Shown here one piece after another: positions 1 through 13,211 of a stretch of 64,000 nucleotides of DNA. This DNA is from Desulfosudaceae bacterium. Its GTDB lineage: Bacteria; Desulfobacterota; Desulfobacteria; Desulfobacterales; Desulfosudaceae. The position numbers were made by a program, and so were the translations under genes. Every line of letters starts with the position of its first letter. Within the stretch, counting starts at the first letter, position 1. The notes beneath the pieces were generated by a model. It was not told the DNA's origin. It did not search any database and saw nothing but the letters and a program-made list of their open reading frames with translations. The stretch spans positions 2,336,001-2,400,000 of the forward strand of contig CAXXDV010000003.1 of NCBI GenBank assembly GCA_963674745.2. Reading direction: 5' to 3'.

Positions 1-1
1 A

Positions 2-178
2 GCAGCCGTCTTATCCATAAGAGGCAACGAACCGATCAAGGCCTATGTCAATAGATTGACCAAACGGCACAGTAAAGGAAAATCACTTACCATCCTGGCC
101 CACAAGTTAGGCCGGACAGTGTATTATATGCTCAAACATAAGGAACCGTTTAATATGGAACGGTTTCTTCCGACGTAA
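2..178 (+). CDS. IS110-family transposase, C-terminal fragment (5' part outside window)
   Basis: Frame from nt 2 reads AAVLSIRGNEPIKAYVNRLTKRHSKGKSLTILAHKLGRTVYYMLKHKEPFNMERFLPT*, which fits the IS110 C-terminal pattern (A..A.R...YY.RL...KGK..A..A.ARKL.R..Y.ML). Confidence 0.85.
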   Translation, partial: AAVLSIRGNEPIKAYVNRLTKRHSKGKSLTILAHKLGRTVYYMLKHKEPFNMERFLPT

Positions 179-600
179 AGCTTGCCGCCACAGCTTGATG
201 CCTAACTGGGACCTGTGAAAATGACTTTGACAGTGATATGTGAAATTGAATTTCTGCAGCCCGACTGCTTAAATATCAATAAAGCAACCGGTTGGGATCC
301 CTTGGCGTTGATTAGAGTGGCGGCATTTAAATAATAAACGGAACAGGAAACGCTGCGCCTTACCCGACCCTGCATTATAACTGGATGGTCACGGCAGTAT
401 CGTGATCAACCCCGACCTTTGAATAGGGCGGCATGAGGTCACCGAATATATTCTAGGGCGTTTACCACTGTGTTGTTCAACTTGGTAAACCGGCAGCAGA
501 TACTGCGTAAGAGACCCTCAATATGTGTTTGTAGCAGCTATTTTACTACGCGCTTTGAATTAAAGACAGTGAGTCCGTTCTGTTTAAAAAACGGAAAGGG
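179..600 (+). ncRNA. candidate bridge RNA/seekRNA in the IS110 3' non-coding end
   Basis: Two closed domains: GCCGCCAC (184-191) pairs with GTGGCGGC (318-325), and AAACGGAAC (336-344) pairs with GTTCTGTTT (577-585). Short matches to the IS right end are present. IS1111-group elements encode their guide RNA downstream of the transposase. Confidence 0.55.
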
Positions 601-737
601 GGAGTAAAAACTCAGGCCCTAAAAAATTTTTATTCCCTATTGACTCCGGGCGGCTCATATGTGTTAACTGATTTTGTTTATAAAATTTCTTGTTAGATAA
701 ATAATATTTAAAAAACAAATTTTTAAATCTTTTGTCA

Positions 738-968
738 TTATAATTTTGGACTAAATTTTAATAACATTTCACGAATATATAGAATGACCATTATGGGCCA
801 CGCTAAAAAACTTACAATTATAAAAAATATTAAACGTGCAGATAAATGGTAAAGAGCAAATTTGATTGATGCATTGTGGCCTTTAATTGAATTGTTCAGA
901 TCTATAATTATCCATATTATTAGCCATACAAAACCTACAGCAATATATGCACAAAGAAAATTTTTCAT
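738..968 (-). CDS. cassette 19: small two-TM membrane protein
   Basis: ATG 968 lies just after R'. 76 aa with two hydrophobic stretches. The longer ORF-track start lies inside attC. Confidence 0.7.
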   Translation of the reverse strand: MKNFLCAYIAVGFVWLIIWIIIDLNNSIKGHNASIKFALYHLSARLIFFIIVSFLAWPIMVILYIREMLLKFSPKL

Positions 969-973
969 ATTAC

Positions 974-1096
974 AGTTAACGTCCACCGTCACTTGGGAGC
1001 AGGGAAAGGTGACTTTTGCAAAGCCACGTTAACACAGAACCACGATACTATAAAAGCAGCCCGCCCCTGCGAGTCAAGTGCATGGTGTGGTTATAT
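974..1096 (-). repeat. attC site (family B-related, 123 bp)
   Basis: AGTTAAC...GTTATAT cores with internal inverted repeat GCAGGG/CCCTGC. Confidence 0.9.
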
Positions 1097-1447
1097 GGCA
1101 ATTACATTCATTATTGCCTCTTTATCTTTAGTTTTCAGAACTTCAACAAGTTTTTTAACACGATTGATGGACTTATCAAAAACTGGAGATGTATTCTCAA
1201 ACGGCAATAATAGTTCAAGACTTGTTTCGGCTTGCTTCAATGCTTCATTAAAATTTTCTAAGCGAGCGTATGTACAGGCAATACACTCTATTAATATCGG
1301 GGTTCCACCTTCATTTTCCGCAAATTTCAGCGCAAGATTATAATGCTTTAGTGCGTCCTCGAAATTACCTTTGCGAATATTTTTGTGGCCTTTGCCCTCA
1401 TGCCATCCCGACATCATTGAATGATATATTTCTTTTACCGGATTCAT
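1091..1447 (-). CDS. cassette 18: tetratricopeptide-repeat protein
   Basis: KGNFEDALKHYNLAL and ACTYARLENFNEALKQAETSL are TPR-like helices. The stop lies within R''. Confidence 0.75.
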   Translation of the reverse strand: MNPVKEIYHSMMSGWHEGKGHKNIRKGNFEDALKHYNLALKFAENEGGTPILIECIACTYARLENFNEALKQAETSLELLLPFENTSPVFDKSINRVKKLVEVLKTKDKEAIMNVIAI

Positions 1448-1461
1448 TCGTATACTAAGCC

Positions 1462-1586
1462 ATATAACGTCCACGGTGTGGGGGCGCAAGGGGAACGGAC
1501 CACCCGCAAAATCTCGTTAATAAAATAATGTGGCAAGAGCCAAAGCCGGACGCCCCTTGCGGTCCCTTACCAACGTGTTGTTATGA
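1462..1586 (-). repeat. attC site (125 bp, diverged)
   Basis: ATATAAC...GTTATGA cores with GCAAGGGG/CCCCTTGC inverted repeat. Confidence 0.85.
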
Positions 1587-1892
1587 CTTTTTATAATATA
1601 TGTAGCATTCATCACATAAGAGGCGAATGCGTCCTTTATTGAACCAGTAAGTATCGCCTTCCTTTATTTTGTAATTGCATACAGAACAATGCTCATGGTC
1701 CCACATATCATCAATTAAATCATATTTTTCTTGGTCGAATTGTCCCCCATAATAGGGTAAAAAGTTACGATGACCATTTACAGGCTTTTTGCATACAAGT
1801 GCCGGATATGGGATAAAGACGGTTTTGGCAAAATCCTTATCGATTATTTCTTCCCATGTTTGCTTATAATATTCGTCATTGCGATTGATCAT
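1581..1892 (-). CDS. cassette 17: hypothetical protein with possible zinc-binding motif
   Basis: 103 aa with WDHEHCSVC...LLCDECY (two CxxC pairs). The stop lies in R''. Confidence 0.75.
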   Translation of the reverse strand: MINRNDEYYKQTWEEIIDKDFAKTVFIPYPALVCKKPVNGHRNFLPYYGGQFDQEKYDLIDDMWDHEHCSVCNYKIKEGDTYWFNKGRIRLLCDECYIYYKKS

Positions 1893-1923
1893 GGGTTGTC
1901 CGGGCTATTATTTATATTCATAG

Positions 1924-2050
1924 TCATAACGTCTGAAGCCAATGGCAGCAAGGGCTTCCACTAACTTGGTTAAAGATTTAGGTTGTTCAGTTCCCCCGAA
2001 ATTTCAAAACCCGAGTGCCCTTGCTGTCCACTTGAGCTTCTTGGTTAAAC
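1924..2050 (-). repeat. attC site (family A, 127 bp)
   Basis: TCATAAC gtctgaagccaatggcagc...gctgtccacttgagctt GTTAAAC. Confidence 0.93.
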
Positions 2051-2059
2051 CAAAAAACA

Positions 2060-2549
2060 TTAGTTTGGAACTTCCATTTCTTTTTTTATTCGATTGATTT
2101 CATCAAGATGACATGATTCCAATTCATTTTTATTTTTTTCCAACAGCGCAAGGAGTCTGTTCCCTTCTTCTTTTATTTTTATTTTTTTCCAACAGCGCAA
2201 GGAGTCTGTTCCCTTCTTCGGTGTCCCCCTTATTCAATTCTGCGCATATTAGTCCCAATAGGATATCAGGGTTTTGCATTTTTGTGTATGCTTCCCGATA
2301 ATACAATACAGACTTTTCATAGTCCCCTATCATAATATAGCAATAGCCAAGAGCAGCTTTAATAAGTGGGCTTGTCGATTCATTTAAAGCTTTTTTGTAA
2401 TTGCCGATCGCAAAACTAAACCAGTGAAGTTCAGTAAAACAGTTCGCTCGCGCAATATACAAATGTTCTTGGTCAAGCCCTACAAGTAAGTAAGCCAAAT
2501 GGAGATAGATTAATTTAACAATTGTCCATATTTTGCTGGCTATGCTCAT
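2060..2549 (-). CDS. cassette 16: TPR protein, C-terminus frameshifted by a 49-bp tandem duplication (current stop at 2130)
   Basis: AALGYCYIMIGDYEKSVLYYREA is a TPR motif. A 45-bp identical repeat lies at 2126-2170 and 2175-2219. Removing one unit restores the frame to TAA at 2060-2062. Confidence 0.75.
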
Positions 2550-2559
2550 AGTTATATAG

Positions 2560-2686
2560 GTTTAACGTCTCAAGCCAATGGCGGCCAGGGCTTCCACTGA
2601 CTTGGTTAATAAGTATGGTTGTTCAGTCCCCCCGAAATTTCAAAACCCGAGTGCCCTGGCTGTCCACTTGAGCTTGATTGTTATCG
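2560..2686 (-). repeat. attC site (family A, 127 bp)
   Basis: GTTTAAC...GTTATCG cores. Confidence 0.93.
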
Positions 2687-2692
2687 AAATAA

Positions 2693-3019
2693 TCATTTTG
2701 GGCTTGGGTTTCTATATACAAATTTCATTTGTTCAATAGAATTTGAATTTTTGAATAGAAACCATACTCTATTTTTTGTCCAGATAGTCACGTGCCCAGA
2801 ATCATCTATATCCATCGCCTCAAACGTATCATTATCCGATGTAATGATGCTTTTCGAAAAAATTGTACCTCTTTCAGAAGAAGGAGAATAGTCTTCTGGG
2901 TAATCCCCATCTTCATTTGATTTTTGAGCTTGTGCCGTATTTAATCGATCTTGTCTTGATTTAACTTTTTCGGGATTTGTTGGATATATGACAAAATCTT
3001 GCCATTCTTCGTAAATCAT
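2693..3019 (-). CDS. cassette 15: hypothetical protein
   Basis: 108-aa ORF that fills the cassette. It starts 11 nt after the intron 3' splice site. Confidence 0.7.
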   Translation of the reverse strand: MIYEEWQDFVIYPTNPEKVKSRQDRLNTAQAQKSNEDGDYPEDYSPSSERGTIFSKSIITSDNDTFEAMDIDDSGHVTIWTKNRVWFLFKNSNSIEQMKFVYRNPSPK

Positions 3020-3030
3020 ATTTTTCTCGA

Positions 3031-5033
3031 GTCGTGGTAGGAATGCCGGTTACCCGGCACCCCCCACACAGTCCCGGACGTGCGGTTTTCCCGCATCCGG
3101 TTCCTCGGTTATACTCGCTTCCGTGTCGGCTTAGCTCAACGCGCACGTGCGAAAACGTTTCTTTTCCGTCAGCTTCGGTTTCGGTATTTTTACGTATTCT
3201 AAGACCTGCTTAAATCGTTCCCAATTATAGCTTTTACGCTGGCTTCTGCGATTCAGCCATTTAAATGCCGAGCTGATCACATCTCTGTAAAACGACCATA
3301 CCGCACGGGCATTCCCCCGTACATAAAAATAATTGTAATGGCCGGTCAGCTTACGTTTCAGCCCATCAAAGATTTGTCTTTTCGGCAGATGCCGGGACTT
3401 CTTCAACCAATCTCTCATACGCGCCAAGGCTTCACGTTGCTTGGCCGGAGCCGTGCGACGCTGTGCCCGGGCAACACCTTTGCGGTCTTTTGACCAGTAA
3501 AATTCGAACCCCAGAAACGTGAACGTCCTGTCACGCTCCCGGCCGGGTTGGAATCGGCTGAACCGGATGACCTTTGTCTTGCTCGGCTCCACCTCAAGAC
3601 CATAGCAGCCGAGGCGTTTCGAAAGAACATCATAGAACCGGTCCGCATCTTCCCGATATTGAAAGGCGCATACCCAGTCATCCGCATATCTGCACATGAT
3701 GGCACGGCCTGCCAGCCTCGGTTTGACTACCTCCTGGAACCATTTATCCAGCACCTCATGCAGATAAATGTTCGACAGGACGGGAGATACGAGTCCTCCC
3801 TGGGGCGTCCCGGTAACCGGATGCTCGACCTGTCCGTCCGGATGCAGGATGCCCGCTTTCAGCCATTTTCTGATCAACCGCAAGAACGCCCGATCATTGA
3901 TCCGTTTCTCCAGTATGGCCATCAGCTTATCATGGTTAATGGTATCAAAATAACTTTTGATATCCGCTTCCACAACATAGCCGAATACGCCGAACTGAAA
4001 CTGAAACGTCAGGTCGCCGATCGCGTCCTTGGCCCCTTTATCCGGTCGGTATCCGTACGAACAATCCAGAAAATCCGGTTCGTATATCTCCGTCAGGATC
4101 ATGGCCACCGCCTTCTGGACAAGTTTGTCCTCCAAGGCGGGGATGCCCAGGGGCCGTTTCTTACCGTTACGCTTTGGAATAAAACGTCTTTTGACCAATC
4201 TCGCCCGGTATCTCTTCTGCCGGAGCTGTTCCGCCAGCCCTTCCAGGTTGGCGATCAGGTCCTGACTGTATGTCTTGACGGTGATGTCGTCATCGGCTAT
4301 GGCCGAACTTTTATTCAAGCCCTTCCACGCCAGATGAAGCAGTTCCGTATTAAGCAGACCATAAAGATCCCGAAAGCGATGCTGCGTGTTGAACCGAGCC
4401 GTTTTGGCTATCCCCCGCAGTGAGGTTTGCACACGTTTATCCGATCCTGCTGTGTCCGGCATGTGTTTCCTTTGCGGGCTACGTACTTCCGTCAAGTCCT
4501 TCCCCATGTACGTGGCTTTCCCACGCTCAGAGTACTATGCTCGATACGACTCCCACCCAACCAGGGTTCCTCCACTTTCGCTTTGGTTCCCCTTCCTGCC
4601 CTGCGGCTACTTAGGCTCGGCTGATATCTGTATCCGGGTTTCCCTTTCGTGTCTAAGTGTCAGCCGGACCATATTGCCGCGCAGGAGTCGGATGGGCCTC
4701 CCAAGTTCTTGTGTGCGTCTCTTCGTACATGCCACGGCTTGATAACTCCGCCGGCCCTCCACACCCTCACCATAACGGATGCTTTTGTGTTGCCTTCGAG
4801 TACGTTACAACTCTCGGCGACCGGAACCAAGCTTCCTTTCGAAGCGATACCAGCACTTCAGGGAGCACGGACTCCCCTACGGCCTGTACGATTCTCTGTG
4901 TACGCTTCGTGTGGGTCGTTCGACGGTATGCCTATCCTTCCCAATCACGCAACACTCGATACGGGTGGCTGGTTAGGCCTCACCCGACGGGGACTTGCAC
5001 CCCGCAAGACGCACCAAGCTTCGCTTGGCGCGC
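3031..5033 (-). mobile_element. group II intron (2003 nt), probably bacterial class E, inserted in attC R' core
   Basis: 5' end is GCGCGCCAAG. Domain V reads GAACCGGATGCGGGAAAACCGCACGTCCGG and domain VI ends CCTACCACGAC. Excision restores GTTA|TCGA, the complement of the cassette's own R'' (gttatcga 2680-2687). Confidence 0.93.
3131..4507 (-). CDS. ltrA: group II intron reverse transcriptase/maturase (no endonuclease domain)
   Basis: Motifs RPLGIPALEDK, GTPQGGLVSPVLSNIYL, RYADD, FTFLGF and X domain GHYNYF...WLNRRSQRKS. The true start may be 4462 or later. Confidence 0.95.
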   Translation of the reverse strand: MGKDLTEVRSPQRKHMPDTAGSDKRVQTSLRGIAKTARFNTQHRFRDLYGLLNTELLHLAWKGLNKSSAIADDDITVKTYSQDLIANLEGLAEQLRQKRYRARLVKRRFIPKRNGKKRPLGIPALEDKLVQKAVAMILTEIYEPDFLDCSYGYRPDKGAKDAIGDLTFQFQFGVFGYVVEADIKSYFDTINHDKLMAILEKRINDRAFLRLIRKWLKAGILHPDGQVEHPVTGTPQGGLVSPVLSNIYLHEVLDKWFQEVVKPRLAGRAIMCRYADDWVCAFQYREDADRFYDVLSKRLGCYGLEVEPSKTKVIRFSRFQPGRERDRTFTFLGFEFYWSKDRKGVARAQRRTAPAKQREALARMRDWLKKSRHLPKRQIFDGLKRKLTGHYNYFYVRGNARAVWSFYRDVISSAFKWLNRRSQRKSYNWERFKQVLEYVKIPKPKLTEKKRFRTCALS

Positions 5034-5157
5034 TAACGTCTGAAGCCAATGGCAGCCAGGGCTTCCACCGACTTGGTTAAAGATTTTGGTTATTCAACTC
5101 CCACTATTTTTCAAAACCCGAGTGCCCTGGCTGTCCACTTGAGCTTCTTGGTTAGTT
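5031..5157 (-). repeat. attC site (family A), R' core interrupted by the intron after GTTA
   Basis: taacgtctgaagccaatggcagccagggc...GTTAGTT, near-identical to other family A sites. Confidence 0.93.
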
Positions 5158-5537
5158 TTCTTCTTCTCTCTGATGTTAAGAATTGTCTTATACAAATCCT
5201 CCATATCCTGACCAGCCCATGGATACATCCGATAATATTTTGATCTGGGCAATATGCTGTTGGCTATGTCGAAGCAATTACAAGTATCGATGTCAATTTG
5301 GAAATTCATTATGACCATTGATTTGGTTTTATTATCATAAATCTTGAGATCTTCCCATGAACGGGGCCATTCATTGTTTCTCTTCACATAGAATGTTGTT
5401 TGTTTTATAACATCGGCAGTTTTATATTCTGGCCCGGTGTTAGCAATGAGTGCAGTGAAACGCCCCAAAAAATAGGCAACCAAGATTGATAGAATGAATA
5501 AAGCCGCTATTAAAAATTTCTTCTTCTTACCAGTCAT
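5094..5537 (-). CDS. cassette 14: hypothetical membrane-anchored protein; ORF runs into attC
   Basis: N-terminal basic plus hydrophobic segment. The stop lies about 60 bp inside attC. Confidence 0.65.
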   Translation of the reverse strand: MTGKKKKFLIAALFILSILVAYFLGRFTALIANTGPEYKTADVIKQTTFYVKRNNEWPRSWEDLKIYDNKTKSMVIMNFQIDIDTCNCFDIANSILPRSKYYRMYPWAGQDMEDLYKTILNIREKKKTNQEAQVDSQGTRVLKNSGS

Positions 5538-5603
5538 TTCACACTTCTCGTAGGTATATGAAGCTATTCATTCGGGTTGCTGCTTCTCATGTGTAGTAAT
5601 GAA

Positions 5604-5731
5604 AACTAACGGCTGCAGCCAAAGGGCGCCAGGGTTTCCTCTGACTGTCTTATAGGTGGTTTATGTTCAGTTCCCCCTGAGTGTTCAAAAGCCGAGTGCC
5701 CTGGCGATCCTCTTGCGCTGCTTGGTTCGGC
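5604..5731 (-). repeat. attC site (family A'', 128 bp)
   Basis: AACTAAC...cgccaggg/ccctggcg...GTTCGGC. Confidence 0.92.
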
Positions 5732-6214
5732 TTACTCTATATTTTTCTGTAGATGATTTAGAATTTTTTCGCCTCTTTCTACTATAACATCAATATCTTC
5801 ATTAACCCACATCAAGTAAATAACTCTAATGTAATTAAAATCCTCGATACAATCTTCTTGGGGGAACATTGTTATTGTAAAATGTCCATTTTCAACCCGC
5901 CAAGCCCAAAATTTATCTCCTACAATATATTCGGTATCGGGATACTTTGTATTTATGATCTTCCTCATTTCATCAAGTTTGATTTTATTGTCTGGGAAAA
6001 GCATGGATATTGCTTTGCATAAATTGTTCTCAATATCTAATTGAATGTTGCTGGGATAAAGAAGAGTATTTTTATTATTTTCTCCCACTGAGAATAATTG
6101 AAGAGGCGTGTTTACGTCTTTCCCAAGTATACTTGTATTTACGTCAACTATCTCAGTCGCATTTGCATCATTAAGCACTAAAATGAGAATGATTAAAAAA
6201 AATATCTTTTTCAT
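5732..6214 (-). CDS. cassette 13: exported hypothetical protein
   Basis: Signal-peptide-like MKKIFFLIILILVLNDANA. The stop is adjacent to R''. Confidence 0.75.
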   Translation of the reverse strand: MKKIFFLIILILVLNDANATEIVDVNTSILGKDVNTPLQLFSVGENNKNTLLYPSNIQLDIENNLCKAISMLFPDNKIKLDEMRKIINTKYPDTEYIVGDKFWAWRVENGHFTITMFPQEDCIEDFNYIRVIYLMWVNEDIDVIVERGEKILNHLQKNIE

Positions 6215-6234
6215 TTTGATATTTCCAATCAGAA

Positions 6235-6329
6235 GCCGAACGTCTGAGGTTAGCTGCAAACTGGAGAGAAAAAAAATAAATTGGCCTCGGTCGGCCAGCC
6301 AGTTTGTCAGCTACAACTCATTGTTCAAG
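6235..6329 (-). repeat. attC site, short atypical type (95 bp)
   Basis: GCCGAAC...TAGCTGCAAACTGG/CCAGTTTGTCAGCTA...GTTCAAG. Confidence 0.85.
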
Positions 6330-6665
6330 TCGGCCCTTCTATATTAATGGTGAAAAGTACCGACTGTCCGTTTAAAATATTTTTTTATCCCCTGGACATG
6401 ACCCTTTTTAGAATCATTATTACCTTCGGCCACCAGGAATTGGTTCATCAATTTCCCTTTTTCAGACTTCAAAATCATTTTTTCAGCCTTTTCCCAGAAT
6501 CGGATCTGGTTCTTAATGCCGATGAATATCGCACAAATAAAACAAAAATGTACCAGCTGATCCGAGCTTATGAAGACTGAAGCGTAAGCCCCTTTTTATA
6601 ATTGTGCTCGCCCCTAAATTATAACTTAATGCCCAAAATTGTCGCATAAAACCTGCGGCAGCTTA
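6330..6665 (-). other. cassette 12: apparently gene-less cassette
   Basis: Only short (about 44 codon) ORFs on the cassette strand and a weak antisense ORF. The cores match (gttcaagt/acttgaac). Confidence 0.6.
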
Positions 6666-6791
6666 CTTGAACGTCGGCAGCCAGAGGGAGCCAGGGATTC
6701 CACTGACTGTCTTAATGTTGGTTAATGTTCAATTCCCCCGGTTACTCAACAAAGCCTGCCCTGGCGATCCTGCTGCGATGCCTTGTTATGA
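6666..6791 (-). repeat. attC site (126 bp)
   Basis: CTTGAAC...gccaggg/ccctggc...GTTATGA. Confidence 0.9.
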
Positions 6792-6793
6792 AT

Positions 6794-7084
6794 CTATTGA
6801 ATTATTACAGTTGCTACAAGTGCCATTCCGCAAAGAGGAACCATTATAATTGCAGGCCATTTAGGTTTTCTCCTATATGCATAAACTGCAAAAATAAGAG
6901 ATGCAATTCCGAACAAACGATAATATTCCAATTTTCCCAATAATCTCGTACAGCCCCGAAGATCTAAGGCATTGTGTATGTCCGAATATAGGTTGAATAA
7001 ATAAAGACAATTGGCAGCACAAACGATACTTAGTATCACAAGTGGCCAAGATGATTTTTTATTATCTCTTGAATCGTGATCCAT
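6794..7084 (-). CDS. cassette 11: small membrane protein
   Basis: 96 aa with three hydrophobic segments. Confidence 0.75.
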   Translation of the reverse strand: MDHDSRDNKKSSWPLVILSIVCAANCLYLFNLYSDIHNALDLRGCTRLLGKLEYYRLFGIASLIFAVYAYRRKPKWPAIIMVPLCGMALVATVIIQ

Positions 7085-7104
7085 TAATTTTCATATCATA
7101 AGAT

Positions 7105-7228
7105 TCATAACGTCCGCCACCACCGGCGAGCAGGGTTTGCGGACTTCGCTAAAGTAAGTTTAACACCAAACTACGCTAAAACCAAAGCAGCACGCCCCTG
7201 CGAGTCAGCGTGGGTGGTGTTGTTATAT
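7105..7228 (-). repeat. attC site (family B, 124 bp)
   Basis: TCATAAC gtccgccaccaccggcgagcaggg...cccctgcgagtc...GTTATAT. Confidence 0.93.
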
Positions 7229-7663
7229 TTAAAAAAAATCTAATTGCGATATTACAGCCGCCAAAATAATTGCAATAATAATTGCGCCTAATGCAAGTGC
7301 CAAAAACTGGAAGGCTATTGCCCCGCCTCCAAGAACTGCGGCCCCTCCGGCAACTCTGAGAGATTCGTTTTTAATAAAAGCCACAACTGCAATGATAATC
7401 GCTATGCCACCCAAGAGCGCTGTGATCACATCAATTATTTTGTCTGCATCCCATTTCGACGACCATTTTTCTTCTTTTACTTCTTTACCTTTAAGGGCAG
7501 CAACTGTCGCATCTCTTATGGCAACTGCTTTTTCAGCAATGGTTTGCTCTAACTTTGGCTGTGGTGCGAAAGGTCCTGCGTAAAAATGGAATAACGCCAA
7601 CAGCAAAGCAATTGACCCGATAATAACACCGATAATTCCGATCTTTGATTTCTCTTCGTCCAT
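7229..7663 (-). CDS. cassette 10: YidI-like inner membrane protein
   Basis: G.IAL...HF..GPF.P.P.LE..IAEK...I.....A.LKG pattern and C-terminal GGG.IAF resemble E. coli YidI as recalled. Confidence 0.65.
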   Translation of the reverse strand: MDEEKSKIGIIGVIIGSIALLLALFHFYAGPFAPQPKLEQTIAEKAVAIRDATVAALKGKEVKEEKWSSKWDADKIIDVITALLGGIAIIIAVVAFIKNESLRVAGGAAVLGGGAIAFQFLALALGAIIIAIILAAVISQLDFF

Positions 7664-7676
7664 TGTTGTCCCTAAA

Positions 7677-7803
7677 ATATAACGTCTTCAGCCAAAGGGC
7701 GCCAGGGCTTACTCCGACTGACTTAAAGATGGTTAAAGTTCAATCGCCAAGGTTTTTCAAAACCCGAGTGCCCTGGCGATCCTCTTGCGCTGAATGGTTA
7801 TAA
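7677..7803 (-). repeat. attC site (family A'', 127 bp)
   Basis: ATATAAC...GTTATAA cores. Confidence 0.93.
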
Positions 7804-8127
7804 GATTTTGTTTATATAATATAAGACAGTTACAAAACATAAAGCTGAAAATAGAAAGTAGAAAGACACCAGAACATTGAACAGTTTAGGCATTTTTTCT
7901 TTATCGATAGCAACTGTTGACGCCCAGGCTCTTCCAGAGACAACTGAAAAGAAAGCGCTCAAAAATGATATTAGGCAAAACAAGACTGCGAACCACAAAG
8001 TTACTGTATCTTTGCTCAAAAAACCTTGCTTGTATTGCCAAATCACAAAAAACGAAATAAATATGCTCGGGATTATTAGAAATAATTGGATATTATAAAA
8101 TCTATTTCTCTTTTTATGGTCAACCAA
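7798..8127 (-). CDS. cassette 9: three-TM membrane protein
   Basis: 109-aa hydrophobic ORF with TTG start and stop in R''. Confidence 0.7.
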   Translation of the reverse strand: MVDHKKRNRFYNIQLFLIIPSIFISFFVIWQYKQGFLSKDTVTLWFAVLFCLISFLSAFFSVVSGRAWASTVAIDKEKMPKLFNVLVSFYFLFSALCFVTVLYYINKIL

Positions 8128-8154
8128 TTCGATTTTCTCTATTTCTGATTTGTC

Positions 8155-8279
8155 TTATAACGTCTGCAGCCAAAGTAGCCAGGGCTTTCTCCGACTGCCT
8201 TAAAGATGGTTAATGTTCAATTTTCCCCGAATTTTCGAACCCGAGTGCCCTGGCTGTCATTTGGGCTGCTTGGTTGTGC
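8155..8279 (-). repeat. attC site (family A', 125 bp)
   Basis: TTATAAC gtctgcagccaaagtagccaggg...GTTGTGC. Confidence 0.93.
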
Positions 8280-8546
8280 GAAAATATATTTTATAGTGAT
8301 TCACAAAAATTTGCAGGGCTTTTCGTTACAAAGTTTTGCAAAAAATTACAGAAACCGATTTTCATCTTTTCCGGATTGACTGGCGAATTCAAAAAATCTA
8401 ATTTTTGGCTGATCAGAAACGCATGATCTGATCGATGCCGGTGGTTCATTCGCAAAGATGAAAAATATATCTTTTTTCCCCTTTGTTTCAAATTCATCCT
8501 GCCAAAAATTATCGAGTAGCTCGATTTTCCAAAAAGCGTTTTATAC
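8280..8546 (-). other. cassette 8: probably gene-less (doubtful 68-aa ORF 8291-8497)
   Basis: The ORF has no recognisable features. The cassette contains the palindrome ATCGAG-TAG-CTCGAT (8511-8525). Confidence 0.5.
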
Positions 8547-8672
8547 GCACAACGTCTGCAGCCAAAGTAGCCAGGGCTTCCAGTGACTGACTTTAAGGTG
8601 GTTGATGTTCAATTTCCCCCGAATGTTCAAAAGCCGAATGCCCTGGCTATCATTTGGGCTGCTTGGTTAAGT
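8547..8672 (-). repeat. attC site (family A', 126 bp)
   Basis: GCACAAC...GTTAAGT, almost identical to 10516-10641. Confidence 0.93.
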
Positions 8673-8952
8673 GCCCGCATTATTCAGAAAGACTTAAACG
8701 ACAGCATGGGCAAATAAAATAAAATGTTATTTTTCTTTTTACGCTTTGTCCATCATGAACTTATGAAAACGGGTAGGTCTCTTTTCATCCGGACAAATAA
8801 AGGCGCATTATCACTTGGCCGCGCCAGTTCGAAATTACAATTTATCTTTACTGGACAAAAATATCAACTTGGTGACAATTACCATTTTGGCAACGAATGT
8901 CGATTTCAGCCCAAATTCTTTTTTTTATTTTTTTCCCGTACAGAATCAGTGC
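8673..8952 (-). promoter_or_regulatory. cassette 7: gene-less cassette copy A with sigma70-like promoter TGGACA-N17-TAACAT (8752-8724)
   Basis: No cassette-strand ORF. Near-identical to 10642-10921. Confidence 0.65.
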
Positions 8953-9079
8953 ACTTAACGTCTGAAGCCAATGGCAGCAAGGGCTTCCACTGACTTGGTT
9001 AAAAGTTTTATTTGTTCAAATTCCCCGATTGTTCAAAACCCGAGTGCCCTTGCTGTCCACTTGAGATTCATTGTTAGGT
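8953..9079 (-). repeat. attC site (family A, 127 bp)
   Basis: ACTTAAC...GTTAGGT cores. Confidence 0.93.
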
Positions 9080-9091
9080 TTCGCAGTGGCA

Positions 9092-9457
9092 TTATTTTTG
9101 TAATCTGGCTTCAAAAGCAGTAACTCTATCTTGGTCAATCAGATATACAATGTCATTTTCAAATTTCACAATCCCTTTTTCGATAAGACGATTTATTACT
9201 GCTTTACCTTTTTTCTCTGACAAAGCGCCTATAATTTTTTTAAACGGCATCTTACATCCATTTTTCTTTAGGTCATGAATAAATAATTCTTCCCCTAACA
9301 TGCGATACCAGAAAAAGATTAAGACGACGTTTGTTGCTAACAGAATTATCGCAAAAGTGAATTTCTTCGCGACTAATAAAAAGACAAAGAATATGGAAAT
9401 AAGTACGATAGAAAAAGAGAGCTTTTGTGTTTTTGTCTTTAAAATAAAAAGTCGCAT
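9092..9457 (-). CDS. cassette 6: membrane protein with possible C-terminal winged-helix-like segment
   Basis: Two TM segments, then AVINRLIEKGIVKFENDIVYL. Confidence 0.7.
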   Translation of the reverse strand: MRLFILKTKTQKLSFSIVLISIFFVFLLVAKKFTFAIILLATNVVLIFFWYRMLGEELFIHDLKKNGCKMPFKKIIGALSEKKGKAVINRLIEKGIVKFENDIVYLIDQDRVTAFEARLQK

Positions 9458-9473
9458 TCTGTAATTTTCTGAA

Positions 9474-9597
9474 ACCTAACGTCCGCCACCACCGGCGAGC
9501 AGGGAATGGTGACTATTGCAAAGCCACGTTAACACCAGACCACGAAATTTAAAAAGCAGCCCGCCCCTGCGAGTCCGTGTGAGTGGCGTTGTTAGCT
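9474..9597 (-). repeat. attC site (family B, 124 bp)
   Basis: ACCTAAC...GTTAGCT cores. Confidence 0.93.
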
Positions 9598-9602
9598 CTT
9601 TT

Positions 9603-9968
9603 TTAAAATAATTTTATACTGTATCGGTCTACCAACATTAGAGCACCCAAAAGCGAAATCCCGCCAAATGTTAAATTATAAAGAAACGCCCAGCTAAAAT
9701 AAACAAGGGCATCTCTTCTGCTTCGTTTGGTTGTGATATTTAAAACTTCTGCAACTAAAGTAATTGCGAGAACGATTACGAAAAGCAATGCGCCACTCAA
9801 CAAGATTATTCCGAGCCACAAAAGAGCGGCTGGGAAACCTGATTTTATCCATGCGATGATGAACGCAATGCCAGAGATCCATCCCACCGATGCAAAACTC
9901 CAGATTGCCCCCAAAATCATTCCTTGATGCAAGCTGATTCTTCGTTCAATTTTCTCTGGAGTATCCAT
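9603..9968 (-). CDS. cassette 5: three-TM membrane protein
   Basis: 121-aa hydrophobic ORF that fills the cassette. Confidence 0.75.
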   Translation of the reverse strand: MDTPEKIERRISLHQGMILGAIWSFASVGWISGIAFIIAWIKSGFPAALLWLGIILLSGALLFVIVLAITLVAEVLNITTKRSRRDALVYFSWAFLYNLTFGGISLLGALMLVDRYSIKLF

Positions 9969-9975
9969 ATTGTAG

Positions 9976-10102
9976 AGCTAACGTCTGAAGCCAATGGCAG
10001 CCAGGGCTTCCACCAGCTTGGTTAAAGATTTTGGTTGTTCAATTCCCCCGATATTTCAAAACCCGACTGCCCTGGCTGTCCACTTGAGCTTCTTGGTTAT
10101 AC
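9976..10102 (-). repeat. attC site (family A, 127 bp)
   Basis: AGCTAAC...GTTATAC cores. Confidence 0.93.
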
Positions 10103-10501
10103 GCCTAATTTATTATTTTCGACTTTATCAAGAATATCCTTTATTAACGAAGGGTCCTCTGCCCAGAAAGGTCTTGGAATTTTAACGACCGATTTATTTG
10201 TGTCGTCCTTTAGTTTTATGAATAGAAAAGGATTAAGGCTAAATGTTTTTCTTGCATTTGATAATTTGACAGTTCCTCGTCCTAAATACCAGTCTATGGC
10301 TTTTATTTCGTCATTTCTCATAACTGACTCCATGCGTAGCATAGCATTTAAAGCCGCTATGATACCGGATAATAGTGCTATAAACCCGATAAAGGGTATG
10401 TCGAGTCCACATTCACGACCAGCGAAAATAATAACAATCGAAACGGATAGTGCAGAGCCTAAACCCAGTTTCCAGGCGTTAAAATTTATATAGTTTCTCA
10501 T
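10097..10501 (-). CDS. cassette 4: two-TM membrane protein with soluble C-terminal domain
   Basis: ATG 10501 lies after R' and the stop lies in R''. Confidence 0.72.
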   Translation of the reverse strand: MRNYINFNAWKLGLGSALSVSIVIIFAGRECGLDIPFIGFIALLSGIIAALNAMLRMESVMRNDEIKAIDWYLGRGTVKLSNARKTFSLNPFLFIKLKDDTNKSVVKIPRPFWAEDPSLIKDILDKVENNKLGV

Positions 10502-10515
10502 TTTATTTGTATAGC

Positions 10516-10641
10516 GTATAACGTCTGCAGCCAAAGTAGCCAGGGCTTCCAGTGACTGACTTTAAAGTGGTTGATGTTCAATTTCCCCCGAAAGTTCAAA
10601 AGCCGAATGCCCTGGCTATCATTTGGGCTGCTTGGTTAAGT
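10516..10641 (-). repeat. attC site (family A', 126 bp)
   Basis: GTATAAC...GTTAAGT cores. Confidence 0.93.
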
Positions 10642-10921
10642 GCCCGCATTATTCAGAAAGACTTTAACGACAGCATGGGCAAATAAAATAAAATGATATT
10701 TTTCTTTTTACGCCTTGTCCATCATGAACTTATGAAAACGGGTAGGTCTCTTTTCATCCGGACAAATAAAGGCGCATTATCATTTGGCCGCGCCAGTTCG
10801 AAATTACAATTTATCTTTACTGGCCGAAAAATTCAACTTGGTGACAATTACCATTTTGGCAACGAATGTCGATTTCAGCCAAAATTCTTTTTTTTATTTT
10901 TTTCCCGTACAGAATCAGTGC
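10642..10921 (-). promoter_or_regulatory. cassette 3: gene-less cassette copy B with sigma70-like promoter TGGACA-N17-TATCAT (10721-10693)
   Basis: No cassette-strand ORF. Duplicate of 8673-8952. Confidence 0.65.
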
Positions 10922-11045
10922 ACTTAACGTCCGCCACCACCGGCGAGCAGGGTTTGCGGACTCCGCTAAAGTGAGTTTAACTCCAAATTACGCCAATACA
11001 AAAACAGCCCGCCCCTGCGAGTCCGCGTGAGTGGCGTTGTTAGAT
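10922..11045 (-). repeat. attC site (family B, 124 bp)
   Basis: ACTTAAC...GTTAGAT cores. Confidence 0.93.
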
Positions 11046-11073
11046 TTATTTATAATTTTAAGGATAGAATAAG

Positions 11074-11445
11074 TTACTCTTTTTCTTTGTTGGCGTTATC
11101 TAAACAGGACGTAGTTTTGTGCTTTAAAGGTTCTATTTTTTTATATCTTTCTTCCAACCAGCTCTTATCTCGACCTTCCTCGATAAAATTCATTACTACA
11201 CCAAATCGAATATGCATATTAGTTTTAAGAGAATCCGTAATTTGTTGATCCGTGCCTTTATTCTTTTTTTCATATTCTATTGATTCAAGCACATTCAGGC
11301 ATAATTCTGCTTCCCCATTAAACTGCCCTTTGTTGTATCCATATTTTTCACCATCACTGTATGCTTTTAAGTAAATGGCAACTATAGAGACACTTTGAAT
11401 TATGATAACTAAAACCAAGCATTTTATTATATTATTTGTTTTCAT
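11074..11445 (-). CDS. cassette 2: membrane-anchored hypothetical protein
   Basis: GGAG RBS, N-terminal TM segment, 123 aa. Confidence 0.75.
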   Translation of the reverse strand: MKTNNIIKCLVLVIIIQSVSIVAIYLKAYSDGEKYGYNKGQFNGEAELCLNVLESIEYEKKNKGTDQQITDSLKTNMHIRFGVVMNFIEEGRDKSWLEERYKKIEPLKHKTTSCLDNANKEKE

Positions 11446-11455
11446 AGCTCCAGTA

Positions 11456-11584
11456 ATCTAACGTCTTCAGCCAAAGGGCGCCAGGGCTTCCTCCGACTGA
11501 CTTAAAGATGGTTAAAATTTCAACTCAGCATGGCTGTTCAAAACCCGGGTGCCCTGGCGATCCTATTGCGCTGAATTGTTCGGT
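11456..11584 (-). repeat. attC site (family A'', 129 bp)
   Basis: ATCTAAC...GTTCGGT cores. Confidence 0.93.
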
Positions 11585-11591
11585 GCCGATT

Positions 11592-12002
11592 TTAGTTTCC
11601 GAAAAACAACTCTTTTGTCTCATAAAGCTTAGAACTATGTTTCCATCCAGACTCATGAGGTGGATCAGGGAAAGGGGCCTTTGCATAACCACAAGATTCC
11701 TTGAAATTAAATACAGCATGTGGAACTTGATTGATCAATAAGGCTGCTGCAGAAAAATCCCTCGTCCATATAATTTTAATCATGGATGGTTTATCTCGGT
11801 CTATTACATCCTTAACATTGTATATATGTAGAGCATCTACGAAAAATTGACCAGAGAGAGAATAATCTCGCGCATAAAAATAGCCTGTCTCACCATCATC
11901 TTCAAAGACAACTCCACGAATCCCATCAGATGTATCCGATTCAAGGACGATTTCTTCCCCGACCACGATTTCTTCTTCTACACCCAAAAATGGTGGCTTC
12001 AT
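11592..12002 (-). CDS. cassette 1: DUF2251-family protein
   Basis: VVFEDDGETGYFYA...DALHIYNV...I.W...A.LLIN..PHAVF motif. Confidence 0.85.
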   Translation of the reverse strand: MKPPFLGVEEEIVVGEEIVLESDTSDGIRGVVFEDDGETGYFYARDYSLSGQFFVDALHIYNVKDVIDRDKPSMIKIIWTRDFSAAALLINQVPHAVFNFKESCGYAKAPFPDPPHESGWKHSSKLYETKELFFGN

Positions 12003-12010
12003 ATTTTATG

Positions 12011-12075
12011 CACCGAACAGTGTAATAAATGGAAAATTTTTCCATGTTATTGACTCATATATGTGGAAAATTTTC
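12011..12075 (-). other. attI site (crossover G/TTCGGTG at 12018)
   Basis: CACCGAAC (12011-12018) matches cassette 1 R'' (gttcggtg 11578-11585). No attC palindrome upstream, and the site is adjacent to intI. Confidence 0.8.
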
Positions 12076-12218
12076 CATTTATTACTATTATTAAAGGGGT
12101 AAACGTGGAAAATTGTCCGCATTATTTTCCACGTTTGCTTTTTCCAATATATTATTCTTGTAATTTTCCATTTATTACCATATTAAAGGGGCAAACATGG
12201 AAAGTTGAAAGGGTCATC

Positions 12219-13211
12219 ATGGAAGATAAACCCAAATTCCGCCCCAATCCCCAGTTGAAATTGCTCGATCAGGTCCGCCAGGTCCTTCGATATCATCATT
12301 ATGCCTATAGCACGGAACACACCTATAGTCACTGGATCAAACGTTACATTTATTATCATGGTGGTAAAACCCATCCCCGTGAATTAAACGAGAAAGACAT
12401 TGAAAATTTTTTATCGCATCTGGCTACAAATGTCAACATTGCAGCTACGACCCAGCGACAGGCATTGAACGCCCTGGTGTTTTTGTACCGTGAGGTGCTG
12501 GATATCCCGCTGACGAAAAAGATTGCGCCGGCCAAGGTAAAAAGGCAAAGCCGACCTCCAACGGTCTTAACACAACAGGAGACCGCCCGGCTTCTGGAGC
12601 AGATGACCGGCACCAATGCGCTGATGGTCAAACTGATGTATGGTTCCGGTATGCGCCTGATGGAATGCATCCGTCTGCGAATTCAAGATATTGATTTTGG
12701 TCAGGGGAAAATTTTCGTGCGGGGCGGTAAAGGGGGGAAAGACCGGGTCACTCTGCTGCCGTCAAATATCCAGGAGAAACTCCAGCATCATATTGGCCGG
12801 GTAAAACAATTGCACAGGGACGATCTTGAAGCGGGTTACGGCCGGGTGTATCTGCCCGGAGCGCTGGCCAAGAAATACCCTGACGCACCAACCAAAATCG
12901 GCTGGCAGTATGTTTTTCCGGCCAAAGAACGATCGTTGGATCCGCGTTCAGGTAAAATACGACGTCATCATGTATTGGGATCCACCCTGCAGAAGGCCAT
13001 CCGCACGGCTGTACGTCGGGCCAGAATAGACAAACGGGTTTCAAGTCATACCCTGCGGCACAGTTTTGCCACCCATATGCTTGAAAACGGGGTTAATATA
13101 AGAGTGCTGCAGGAGCTTCTGGGGCATGCTGATGTGAAAACCACCGAGATTTATACCCATGTGATGAGAAAAGATATTGACGGCTTGAAAAGCCCGTTGG
13201 ATCTGCTTTAA
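12219..13211 (+). CDS. intI: integron integrase (tyrosine recombinase)
   Basis: LLDQVR..LR..HY...TE..Y..W, YGSGMR, GKGGKDR, IntI-specific insert VYLPGALAKKYP...WQYVFP, HTLRHSFATH, LLGH...TTEIYTH. Confidence 0.97.
   Translation: MEDKPKFRPNPQLKLLDQVRQVLRYHHYAYSTEHTYSHWIKRYIYYHGGKTHPRELNEKDIENFLSHLATNVNIAATTQRQALNALVFLYREVLDIPLTKKIAPAKVKRQSRPPTVLTQQETARLLEQMTGTNALMVKLMYGSGMRLMECIRLRIQDIDFGQGKIFVRGGKGGKDRVTLLPSNIQEKLQHHIGRVKQLHRDDLEAGYGRVYLPGALAKKYPDAPTKIGWQYVFPAKERSLDPRSGKIRRHHVLGSTLQKAIRTAVRRARIDKRVSSHTLRHSFATHMLENGVNIRVLQELLGHADVKTTEIYTHVMRKDIDGLKSPLDLL

Follow-up and report, generated by a model that had tools for sequence, protein, structure and literature searches.

A sense-oriented, class E-like group II intron that appears to target the attC R' core of integron cassette arrays

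Introduction

The best-described group II introns of integrons are the IIC-attC introns (S.ma.I2, E.c.I7, and Kl.pn.I1/I3), which insert into the bottom strand of attC sites and lie antisense to the cassette genes (PMC3001079; Leon, Quiroga, Centron, and Roy). The initial annotation of the locus studied here had given this as established background, and it is indeed in print (PMC3001079). Introns specific to attC have been regarded as a single class C sub-lineage, inserted backwards and blocking cassette transcription. Class C introns are also described as following transcription terminators (summarized in PMC4424553 after Robart et al. 2007). Beyond class C, Sonbol and Siam (2021; PMC7923331) report that a cassette array of Halorhodospira halochloris contains the class E fragments H.ha.F1 and H.ha.F2. 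The same paper covers UHB.I2, a CL1 (IIB1) intron that closely follows an attC and for which no conservation of the flanking exons is reported, and an "unusual" top-strand IIC intron in an Enterobacter cloacae integron.

Here we describe an intron in a cassette array within a 64,000-nucleotide stretch of a Desulfosudaceae genome (the window). Comparison of the intron with its relatives makes it quite likely that this is a mobile, endonuclease-less, class E-like intron outside class IIC that homes into the top strand of attC, between bases 4 and 5 of R' (GTTA/N, where the slash marks the insertion point).

Results

A complete group II intron of 2,003 nt occupies 3031..5033 on the minus strand, with GCGCG at its 5' end and GAC at its 3' end. 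Both junctions were read on the minus strand (...GGCTTCAGACGTTA / GCGCGCCAAGCG ... CCTACCACGAC / TCGAGAAAAA), and alignments of homologous introns have intron bases 1 and 2003 as their limits. The junction GACGTTA/TCGA given in the initial annotation therefore stands, while the 5' start that it had placed at 5037 is corrected by 4 nt to 5033. The flanks (...GACGTTA on the 5' side, TCGAG on the 3' side) put the intron exactly at the R' end of the upstream attC (5034..5154, minus strand), a 121-nt top-strand site running from TAAC to GTTA that forms an imperfect hairpin with bulged bases and whose last 6 nt, ACGTTA (5039..5034, minus strand), are the IBS1. The downstream cassette (2563..3030, minus strand) contains an ORF at 2693..3019 and its own attC at 2563..2683. 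As had been noticed from the start, excision of the intron joins GTTA to TCGA, the exact complement of this cassette's own R'' (TCGATAAC, 2687..2680).

A second copy, 100% identical over 2,003 nt, lies elsewhere in the genome at the same base of another attC, where removal of the intron joins GTTA to TACGC and again complements the R'' of its own cassette (GCGTATAAC). Since the upstream attC sites and the downstream cassettes differ between the two copies, these are separate insertions and not one duplicated segment. Both copies occupy CTTCAGACGTTA/T, and GC skew indicates that leading-strand sequence carries both of them. The intron was not found in a search of two genomes of its genus, with completeness of 71% and 99%, one of which has the same attC type, and this fits a recent arrival. 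Contigs of four sequencing runs, which are crowded with related introns, did not yield the joint of 5034 and 3030 in either spliced or empty form, and in a search of 60 relatives for an empty-site orthologue with the downstream cassette only its attC part was matched.

The host structure is an integron, with the integrase gene (12063..13211, plus strand; TIGR02249, E 1.7e-128) divergent from an attC-bounded cassette array at 1..12000. This array holds 18 attC sites, the upstream attC of the intron among them; 17 were found by BLAST with three local attC types, and the one at 6238 was found by a hairpin scan. The GC content is about 39% in the array and about 55% in the remainder of the window. 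The cassette ORFs are on the minus strand, as is the intron, and homologous introns likewise lie in sense orientation relative to neighboring small ORFs, which bears out the co-orientation with cassettes noted at first. The earlier count of ACGTTA at the ends of 14 of the 18 attC sites was also reproduced, the others ending in CCGTTA, ACGTTG, and, twice, ACGTTC. Across the whole window ACGTTA shows no enrichment (24 occurrences against 17.7 expected), and 14 of these 24 are minus-strand attC ends in the first 12 kb. The genome contains 1,202 ACGTTA and 498 ACGTTAT, about 81 of the latter being attC ends. Just 2 of these roughly 81 ACGTTA/T attC sites are occupied, both also with CTTCAG upstream, so that the suggestion that most of the array is potential target was overstated.

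The intron carries a domain I, a 3' end with domains V and VI, and an RT/maturase encoded in domain IV. The domain I core (4736..4997, minus strand) matches Rfam RF02005 (group-II-D1D4-6) with 111.2 bits against a gathering score of 49. Domain V (3071..3103, minus strand) aligns end to end with RF00029, scoring 33.9 bits where the gathering score is 40, and its catalytic triad (3102..3100) reads AAC instead of AGC; domain VI (3031..3066, minus strand) has its bulged A, 7 nt away from the 3' splice site, at 3038. Group II introns usually begin with GUGYG and have AGC or CGC as the domain V triad. This intron deviates in both respects, with GCGCG and AAC, and both deviations are kept in its lineage, where AAC is found in 10 of 12 aligned members whose RTs go down to 55% identity; relatives having GUGCG and AGC exist as well. 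We assume catalytic competence from this lineage-wide conservation and from the two identical copies. The RT/maturase (3131..4507, minus strand) is an intact ORF of 458 aa, the same length as the RTs of relatives, in which YADD is present and an endonuclease domain is lacking. It matches TIGR04416 (E 3.8e-102; 342 bits, cut-off 300) and, in Pfam, RVT_1 alone (E 1.4e-33), with no HNH, and the motifs QTSLRGIAK, GHYNYF, and WLNRRSQRKSYNW picked out by the initial annotation are seen in its translation.

Target pairing is clearest for EBS1. The domain I hairpin GAGT-TGTAACGT-ACTC (4798..4813, minus strand) is present as first described, and its loop (4807..4802), EBS1 UAACGU, pairs with the 5' exon ACGUUA. 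Among 54 relatives with a locatable loop, at least 5 contiguous pairs counted from exon position -1 are formed in 50 and at least 6 in 40, with a mean pairing of 6.02 compared to 4.08 for 2,300 non-cognate pairs. Compensatory cases include UAAUGU with ACAUUA (L011) and UAACGC with GCGUUG (L004). Throughout the class, EBS1 loop and 5' exon thus covary. Upstream in domain I lies CUGAAG (4856..4861, minus strand), which in this genome complements exon positions -12 to -7, CUUCAG (5045..5040), and is a candidate for an IBS2-like contact. The reading of EBS2 and EBS1 as one contiguous 12-bp match, CUGAAG plus UAACGU against CUUCAGACGUUA, was rejected because CUGAAG is conserved class-wide regardless of the exon. 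EBS2 covariation was not found in the lineage (cognate 4.81, non-cognate 4.92), and we keep the CUGAAG/CUUCAG contact as a local possibility; in sister sub-lineages an EBS2 lies about 20 nt upstream of EBS1. The candidate EBS3 is an A at intron nt 291 (4743, minus strand), facing the T at 3030 with which the 3' exon begins. In 8 of 11 relatives its column is Watson-Crick complementary to exon +1. This weak signal is the best of any domain I column, none of which pairs with that base in every one of the 11.

Related introns are found in many phyla. Seven of the nine homologues with a visible junction in the genome collection end in GTTA, with one GTTG and one ATTA, and among metagenome loci found through the 5' intron motif 31 of 80 end in GTTA. 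The domain I tree places the window intron in a clade of 14 sequences (SH-aLRT 95), 13 of them at GTTA and 1 at GTTG, and many of these sites are clear attC hairpins. By our attC hairpin test, 19 of 38 GTTA exons pass compared to 6 of 48 others, counts that come from a home-made fold heuristic which misses long sites as well as sites that are attC-like by eye (L009 and L010), so that 19 of 38 is a minimum. Two earlier heuristics were dropped, as they gave no discrimination or wrongly demanded TAAC. The distance from stem to insertion is regular, mostly 7 to 10 nt, and hosts with unrelated attC sequences repeatedly show GTTA ends together with attC hairpins. No obvious attC was seen at the closest relative (L003), nor at L011, L014, and L213. 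GTTA targets are scattered on the domain I tree, where well-supported branches force at least four changes, so that "one lineage" holds for the 14-sequence clade only. We also observed that several of the six passing non-GTTA exons are attC-like with a variant core. The comparison of homologues proposed at the outset, for attC R' flanks and covarying EBS1/IBS1, has thus been made, and the covariation, the clade confined to GTTA and GTTG, and the hairpins all favor the original idea that the intron is programmed against the R' core.

The RT scores 129 to 148 bits against solved IIC RTs (GsI-IIC, 7UIM, 5HHJ, and 5HHL) and 140 bits against LtrA, while the IIC-clade loci L025 and L041 reach 385 to 458 bits against the same IIC RTs. 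Against the solved RT of 6me0, which we take to be the chloroplast-like (CL) TeI4h RT, it scores 116 bits, and its best plasmid RT match is only 41% identical. The RT tree, which was built without class E, F, A, and B references and without the IIC-attC references KX711879, KM977631, and KX711880, gives it a clade of its own with SH-aLRT 100, on a stem measuring 0.95 changes per column. The RT falls outside C and ML and lies apart from the single class D reference. As Rfam controls, IIC-clade loci match RF02001 and RF01998, while the intron and all its class match RF02005, which also differs from the families matched by class D controls. These results uphold the earlier view that the intron is not class IIC. 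Its suggested class E character is supported indirectly, by an identity of about 49% to H.ha.F2, an intron fragment published as class E (a by-eye count of some 100 identical positions among about 205 aligned). RT and X domains without D/En, a class E feature, are what the 458-aa protein with RVT_1 only and no HNH displays. No class E intron names were found in the class D and group g1 rows of the Toro 2013 supplements.

Described IIC-attC introns insert antisense in the bottom strand of attC, while this one occupies the top strand with the same orientation as the cassette ORFs. For the class C pattern of a hairpin and a short IBS1 with no EBS2 the signs are mixed: a hairpin lies upstream and no cognate EBS2 signal was detected, yet EBS1 pairing spans 6 bp and the CUGAAG/CUUCAG match exists in this genome. 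Of the three contacts of IIB-like introns, EBS1 is firm, EBS2 is found in sister sub-lineages and not in this lineage, and EBS3 is a candidate.

Discussion

Our results point to a real sense-strand lineage that targets the attC R' core and is probably mobile. Several other explanations have to be weighed against this reading. The one we take most seriously, though we consider it unlikely, is an ordinary sequence-homing class E intron for which ACGTTA(T) is merely common in the attC sites of this genome and attC structure is irrelevant. It can draw on the attC share of ACGTTAT (about 81 of 498, with 1,202 ACGTTA), by which two of two insertions would fall in attC by chance at about 3%, on the relatives that lie outside obvious attC, and on sister lineages of the same class that home via EBS1 to unrelated sequences. 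Chance of this kind would hardly explain why GTTA and attC hairpins recur among hosts whose attC sequences are unrelated or why the spacing between stem and insertion is so regular (mostly 7 to 10 nt), and without EBS2 a target of 5 to 6 nt would be too short for such precision. A class C intron (IIC or IIC-attC, like S.ma.I2) that entered the other strand by chance, as once reported for the Enterobacter cloacae integron, would share the lack of an En domain, the insertion a few bases past a DNA hairpin, and the missing covarying EBS2, and the best solved-structure matches by E-value are in fact IIC RT fragments. We nevertheless hold this to be highly improbable, as the bit scores to IIC RTs are at the level of LtrA and far from those of IIC-clade loci, the RT clade is separate (SH-aLRT 100, stem of 0.95), domain I belongs to RF02005 and not to RF02001 and RF01998, EBS1 pairing extends to 6 bp, and the domain V triad is other than CGC.

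The remaining alternatives concern how the intron arrived and whether it is still active. With the intron 3 nt inside the downstream cassette, an integrase could presumably have carried it in as part of that cassette by recombination, the junction then reflecting cassette shuffling with no retrohoming, and the occurrence of related introns in many phyla would suit such transport. This explanation has very little to commend it when each of the two copies has a different cassette attached, the cassette's own R'' in both copies matches the sequence restored on intron removal, and EBS1 fits the end of the upstream attC, which is part of a different cassette. An inactive relic could be suspected from the non-canonical domain V triad with its RF00029 score below threshold and from the few available sites occupied (2 of about 81). 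That the intron is such a relic seems very unlikely to us, given an intact 458-aa ORF with YADD and the length of its relatives, two identical copies, and an AAC triad retained in 10 of 12 aligned members despite RT identity down to 55%.

For a mobile intron homing into the attC top strand, our observations lead us to propose the following mechanism. The intron RNP would reverse-splice into the transiently single-stranded top strand at the replication fork, and nascent lagging-strand DNA would serve as primer; we propose this because there is no En domain and both copies are on the lagging-strand template. Recognition may rely on the folded attC hairpin 7 to 10 nt upstream together with the short EBS1 pairing (5 to 6 bp) and possibly a single EBS3 pair, an IIC-like mode that would have been reached independently. 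We infer the contribution of the hairpin from its position and from the absence of a covarying EBS2. In its sense orientation the intron would be transcribed together with the cassettes and could splice out, restoring the junction. Moreover, as it lies 3 nt downstream of the G/TT crossover, it should move with the downstream cassette, and excision of that cassette by the integrase would carry the intron along. A broader proposal, for and against which we see about equal weight, is that these introns form a second, independent, and widespread guild, derived from class E, marked by GCGCG and AAC and by loss of EBS2, which reads the folded attC top strand and, via EBS1 UAACG, the universal R' core, sits in sense 3 nt inside the next cassette, splices out, and rides cassettes between phyla.

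A sense-strand lineage outside class C would mean at least two evolutionary origins of attC targeting, and it would also give a natural example of an IIB-like intron that has adopted recognition by a hairpin plus a short IBS1. The effect of such introns on cassette expression would be recast, as their insertions would be removable by splicing and not polar blocks, and a route for the joint spread of introns and cassettes is suggested. The conserved AAC, where a catalytic AGC or CGC would be expected, gives ribozyme chemistry an oddity that can be tested, and cassette arrays could be marked or disrupted with an EBS1 directed at the universal R' core as the tool.

Among described systems, the IIC-attC introns resemble the window intron in being En-less and specialized for attC, in using a fixed base beside a hairpin, and in recurring in many arrays. 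As they are described, they form a monophyletic subset of class C and lie antisense, between a gene and its attC, whereas the window intron is non-class-C and sits at R' in the top strand, in sense, with a 6-bp EBS1. The class C introns behind terminators possibly share the same mode, a DNA hairpin with a short IBS1 right after it and presumably no EBS2; the window intron differs from them in class, and its hairpin is the attC top strand. UHB.I2 and the Enterobacter cloacae intron are, like the window intron, sense to the cassettes, but they are reported in other classes. H.ha.F1 and H.ha.F2 have an RT about half identical by eye, and both fragments follow attC or attC-like structures, in the same strand as the cassettes. 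A sense-strand attC lineage is therefore not fully new, since class E fragments in an array were already reported, and the published account (PMC7923331) hints at one; its supplement offered no searchable DNA matching the domain V or 5' end of our intron. As reported there, these fragments are 5'-truncated with broken ORFs, which leaves their insertion point, EBS1/IBS1 pairing, and lineage-wide target undefined, whereas the window intron is complete, occurs in two copies, and reveals its target rule.

Results

Read along the minus strand, the sequence across the intron runs ...GGCTTCAGACGTTA | GCGCGCCAAGCG ... CCTACCACGAC | TCGAGAAAAA, which places an inserted group II intron of 2003 nt at 5033..3031 (minus strand), between GACGTTA and TCGAG at the R' end of an attC site. 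The initial annotation, which had put the intron at 3031..5037, was right about the junction itself and placed the start 4 nt too high. Alignments with homologous introns run from base 1 to base 2003, and beyond these limits the sequences diverge. Within 5033..3031, all on the minus strand, we found a domain I core that matches Rfam RF02005 with 111 bits, a domain V/VI end whose end-to-end alignment to RF00029 scores 33.9 bits, below the gathering score of 40, and a gene for an RT/maturase of 458 aa (TIGR04416, 342 bits) that carries YADD and has no endonuclease domain.

The R' of a cassette joins two parts of that same cassette, the G at its 3' end and the TTRRRY at its 5' end, and the cassette's own R'' is therefore expected to be complementary to its first bases. 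The R'' of the cassette downstream of the window's intron, TCGATAAC, complements GTTA+TCGA exactly. The genome has a second copy of the intron on another contig, 100% identical to the first, again preceded by ...GGCTTCAGACGTTA of an attC and followed instead by TACGCAAAGG, and the R'' of the cassette after it, GCGTATAAC, is the complement of GTTA+TACGC. The attC sites upstream of the two copies show many differences, and the cassettes downstream of them are unrelated; the copies are therefore independent insertions at one and the same base rather than a duplicated segment. A search of 60 relatives with the downstream cassette found no empty-site ortholog of the locus, and searches of two genomes of the same genus (71% and 99% complete) did not find the intron; related introns are present in the family and order.

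The pairing first noticed between a domain I loop and the 5' exon holds, as UAACGU (4807..4802, minus strand), in the loop of hairpin 4813..4798, is complementary to exon ACGUUA. This loop is identified as EBS1 by its covariation with the exon across the intron class. Homologs comprised 9 introns from the genome collection with a visible 5' junction and 80 metagenome loci with the conserved 5' intron motif; among the 54 introns with a locatable loop, at least 5 contiguous pairs from exon position -1 are present in 50 and at least 6 in 40. The mean number of pairs is 6.02 for cognate versus 4.08 for 2300 non-cognate combinations. Other, quite unlike targets within the class are paired as well (for example CGAAGAU with AUCUUCG, ACGAUC with GGUCGU, GUGAUG with CAUCAC), and the attC-aimed group includes compensatory changes in two relatives, UAAUGU/ACAUUA in L011 and UAACGC/GCGUUG in L004. 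Support for a candidate EBS3, the A at 4743, is weak: among 11 relatives, 8 have it paired with exon +1. No EBS2 was found in the lineage of the window's intron (score 4.81 cognate versus 4.92 non-cognate); in sister sub-lineages an EBS2 is clearly seen, at a distance of about 20 nt on the upstream side of EBS1. Another sub-lineage of the class (loci L095, L096, L109, L110, L113, L119, L122, L138, L141 and L142) occupies a recurrent, unrelated target, ...CCCCACAGTGGACAATCTTCG|, which its EBS1 CGAAGAU matches.

Against RTs of solved structure, the window's RT scored 129-148 bits for class C, 140 for LtrA and 116 for the RT of 6me0, the chloroplast-like RT of TeI4h. In the RT tree, two loci of the large clade scored 385-458 bits against the same class C RTs, one locus from another clade scored 405 bits against LtrA, and the class D reference (NC_013792.1, Table S1 of PMC3552965) falls in a third. 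The suspicion that the intron is not class IIC is borne out by this tree, in which the window's RT lies outside the IIC, LtrA-like and class D clades, in an 11-row clade of its own (SH-aLRT 100, stem 0.95); the tree was built by a quick method from 47 rows, after removal of 6 near-duplicates and of ORFs outside 320-660 aa, with the class D reference among them. Rfam matches are to RF02001 and RF01998 for IIC-clade loci, to RF01999 for the class D reference and to RF02005 for every scanned member of the window intron's class. The proteins H.ha.F1 and H.ha.F2, printed in the supplement of Sonbol and Siam 2021, are class E in their tree (PMC7923331), and by a count made by eye H.ha.F2 shares about 100 identities in about 205 aligned residues with the C-terminal half of the window's RT. 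It is through this likeness that the intron is indirectly and putatively set in class E.

In L091 (266-907), no more than about 300 nt separate domain I (266-519) from domain V/VI (833-907), which makes this locus an ORF-less member of the class. The intron that served as class D reference (L202, NC_013792.1 49900-52300, plasmid pBpOF4-01) has both flanks annotated as pieces of another RT gene and seems to lie inside another retroelement. The catalytic triad in domain V of the window's intron (3100-3102, minus strand; domain V 3071-3103) is AAC rather than AGC or CGC, opposite A.A and A.G. Among 12 aligned members of the lineage it is AAC in 10, AAU in L006 and AGC in L014, and the more distant class members L012, L015 and L016 have AGC with G.A; G.A thus appears to have been exchanged for A.G in this lineage.

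The integron cassette array occupies 1..12000, with all of its small ORFs on the minus strand, and the gene for the integron integrase (TIGR02249, E 1.7e-128) is on the plus strand at 12063..13211. GC content is about 39% in the array versus about 55% in the remainder of the window. There are 18 attC sites of three sequence types in the array, 17 detected by BLAST and one (at 6238) added by a hairpin scan, and a recount agrees with the earlier figure of 14 of 18 ending in ACGTTA. Genome-wide, about 233 attC-like sites of these types are spread over several separate arrays in both orientations, which for a genome of 5.5 Mb is an unusually large reservoir of cassettes; 140 end in ACGTTA, 79 of them empty with T as the next base. 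Some arrays (on contig C3 near 1.8 Mb and contig C1 near 2.1 Mb) run opposite to the direction of replication. Two cassettes of the window's array, those after the attC sites ending at 10925 and 8956, share their first 12 bases, AGTGCACTGATT (minus strand, 10913-10924 and 8944-8955 respectively), and may be one cassette present twice.

Discussion

The location of the intron at an attC could reflect chance or targeting, and the homologs bear on both. Exon ends at the 5' junction are GTTA in 7 of the 9 genome-collection homologs (GTTG and ATTA in one each) and in 31 of the 80 metagenome loci, namely in 18 of 19 with a GCGCG intron start versus 13 of 61 with a GUGCG start. The window's intron starts with GCGCG rather than GUGCG (5029-5033, minus strand; metagenome relatives L083-L162). 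That homologous introns also follow attC ends gains support from a home-made test (AAC-start segment, 44-139 nt, at least 14 pairs between the first and last 28 nt), a heuristic that misses some sites judged attC-like by eye (L009, L010): it was passed by 19 of 38 GTTA exons versus 6 of 48 others, several of these 6 being attC-like with a variant core (GTTG, or insertion straight after GTT). The exons fold into an L-box stem with bulged bases, followed mostly by 7-10 unpaired nt before the insertion point, and wherever a homologous locus has sufficient flank, neighboring small ORFs are co-oriented with the intron. L003, the closest relative, is one of several members that lie outside obvious attC sites.

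When 68 domain I sequences were placed in a tree, by a quick search as for the RTs, the window's intron fell into a clade of 14 (SH-aLRT 95), of which 13 members are at GTTA and one is at GTTG. Other parts of this tree contain GTTA targets too, and well-supported branches force at least 4 changes of target; attC targeting in this class would then be either ancient or attained repeatedly. In sister sub-lineages, introns are found inserted at the 3' foot of long hairpins of other kinds (5' flank of L161, also L102 and L092), one of them a 137-nt near-perfect inverted repeat, TAGTGTCC...GGACACTA (dG -43.8), and insertion at a hairpin foot may be a habit of the whole class.

Introns that lack the endonuclease domain generally prefer the lagging-strand template. 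The minimum of the cumulative GC skew falls at about 1.52 Mb on contig 1 and the maximum at about 1.34 Mb on contig 3, and on the usual reading of GC skew the sense strand of both copies lies on leading-strand sequence, so that the strand receiving the RNA would be the lagging-strand template. An intron of this kind requires a primer from the replication fork (PMC4424553), and the window's intron, having no endonuclease domain, would likewise need a fork-derived primer. Both copies occupy CTTCAGACGTTA|T, of which the genome has 7 sites with the two occupied ones counted; the chance of both falling among these 7 when 2 of the 81 ACGTTA|T sites are drawn at random is 21/3240, about 0.0065, with attC subtype as a confounder. 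This hints at an extra contact beyond EBS1, perhaps by the conserved CUGAAG at 4861..4856, a motif that shows no covariation elsewhere. The insertion point lies 3 nt beyond the G|TT crossover, so the intron would be physically part of the downstream cassette, and in its sense orientation it would be transcribed together with the cassettes and could splice out. In four public runs (X1-X4), depth across 2700-5300 is many times higher at the conserved 5' and 3' intron ends than over the ORF, and numerous distinct loose ends begin within 3030-3036; these samples contain many related introns side by side, with flanks other than those of the window.

A search of the full-text literature, with subscription papers outside its scope, yielded no account of R' as the target of a class E lineage. 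Within class C, the described IIC-attC introns form a monophyletic subset that inserts into the bottom strand, antisense (PMC3001079), and a class D intron is listed in a cassette of a Vibrio chromosomal integron (PMC3552965). According to Sonbol and Siam 2021, only IIC introns had previously been linked to integrons, one top-strand case among them being cited; to these the same authors added a CL1 intron in sense orientation beside an attC, as well as two class E fragments, both 5'-truncated, from a cassette array, and they define no insertion rule for class E (PMC7923331).
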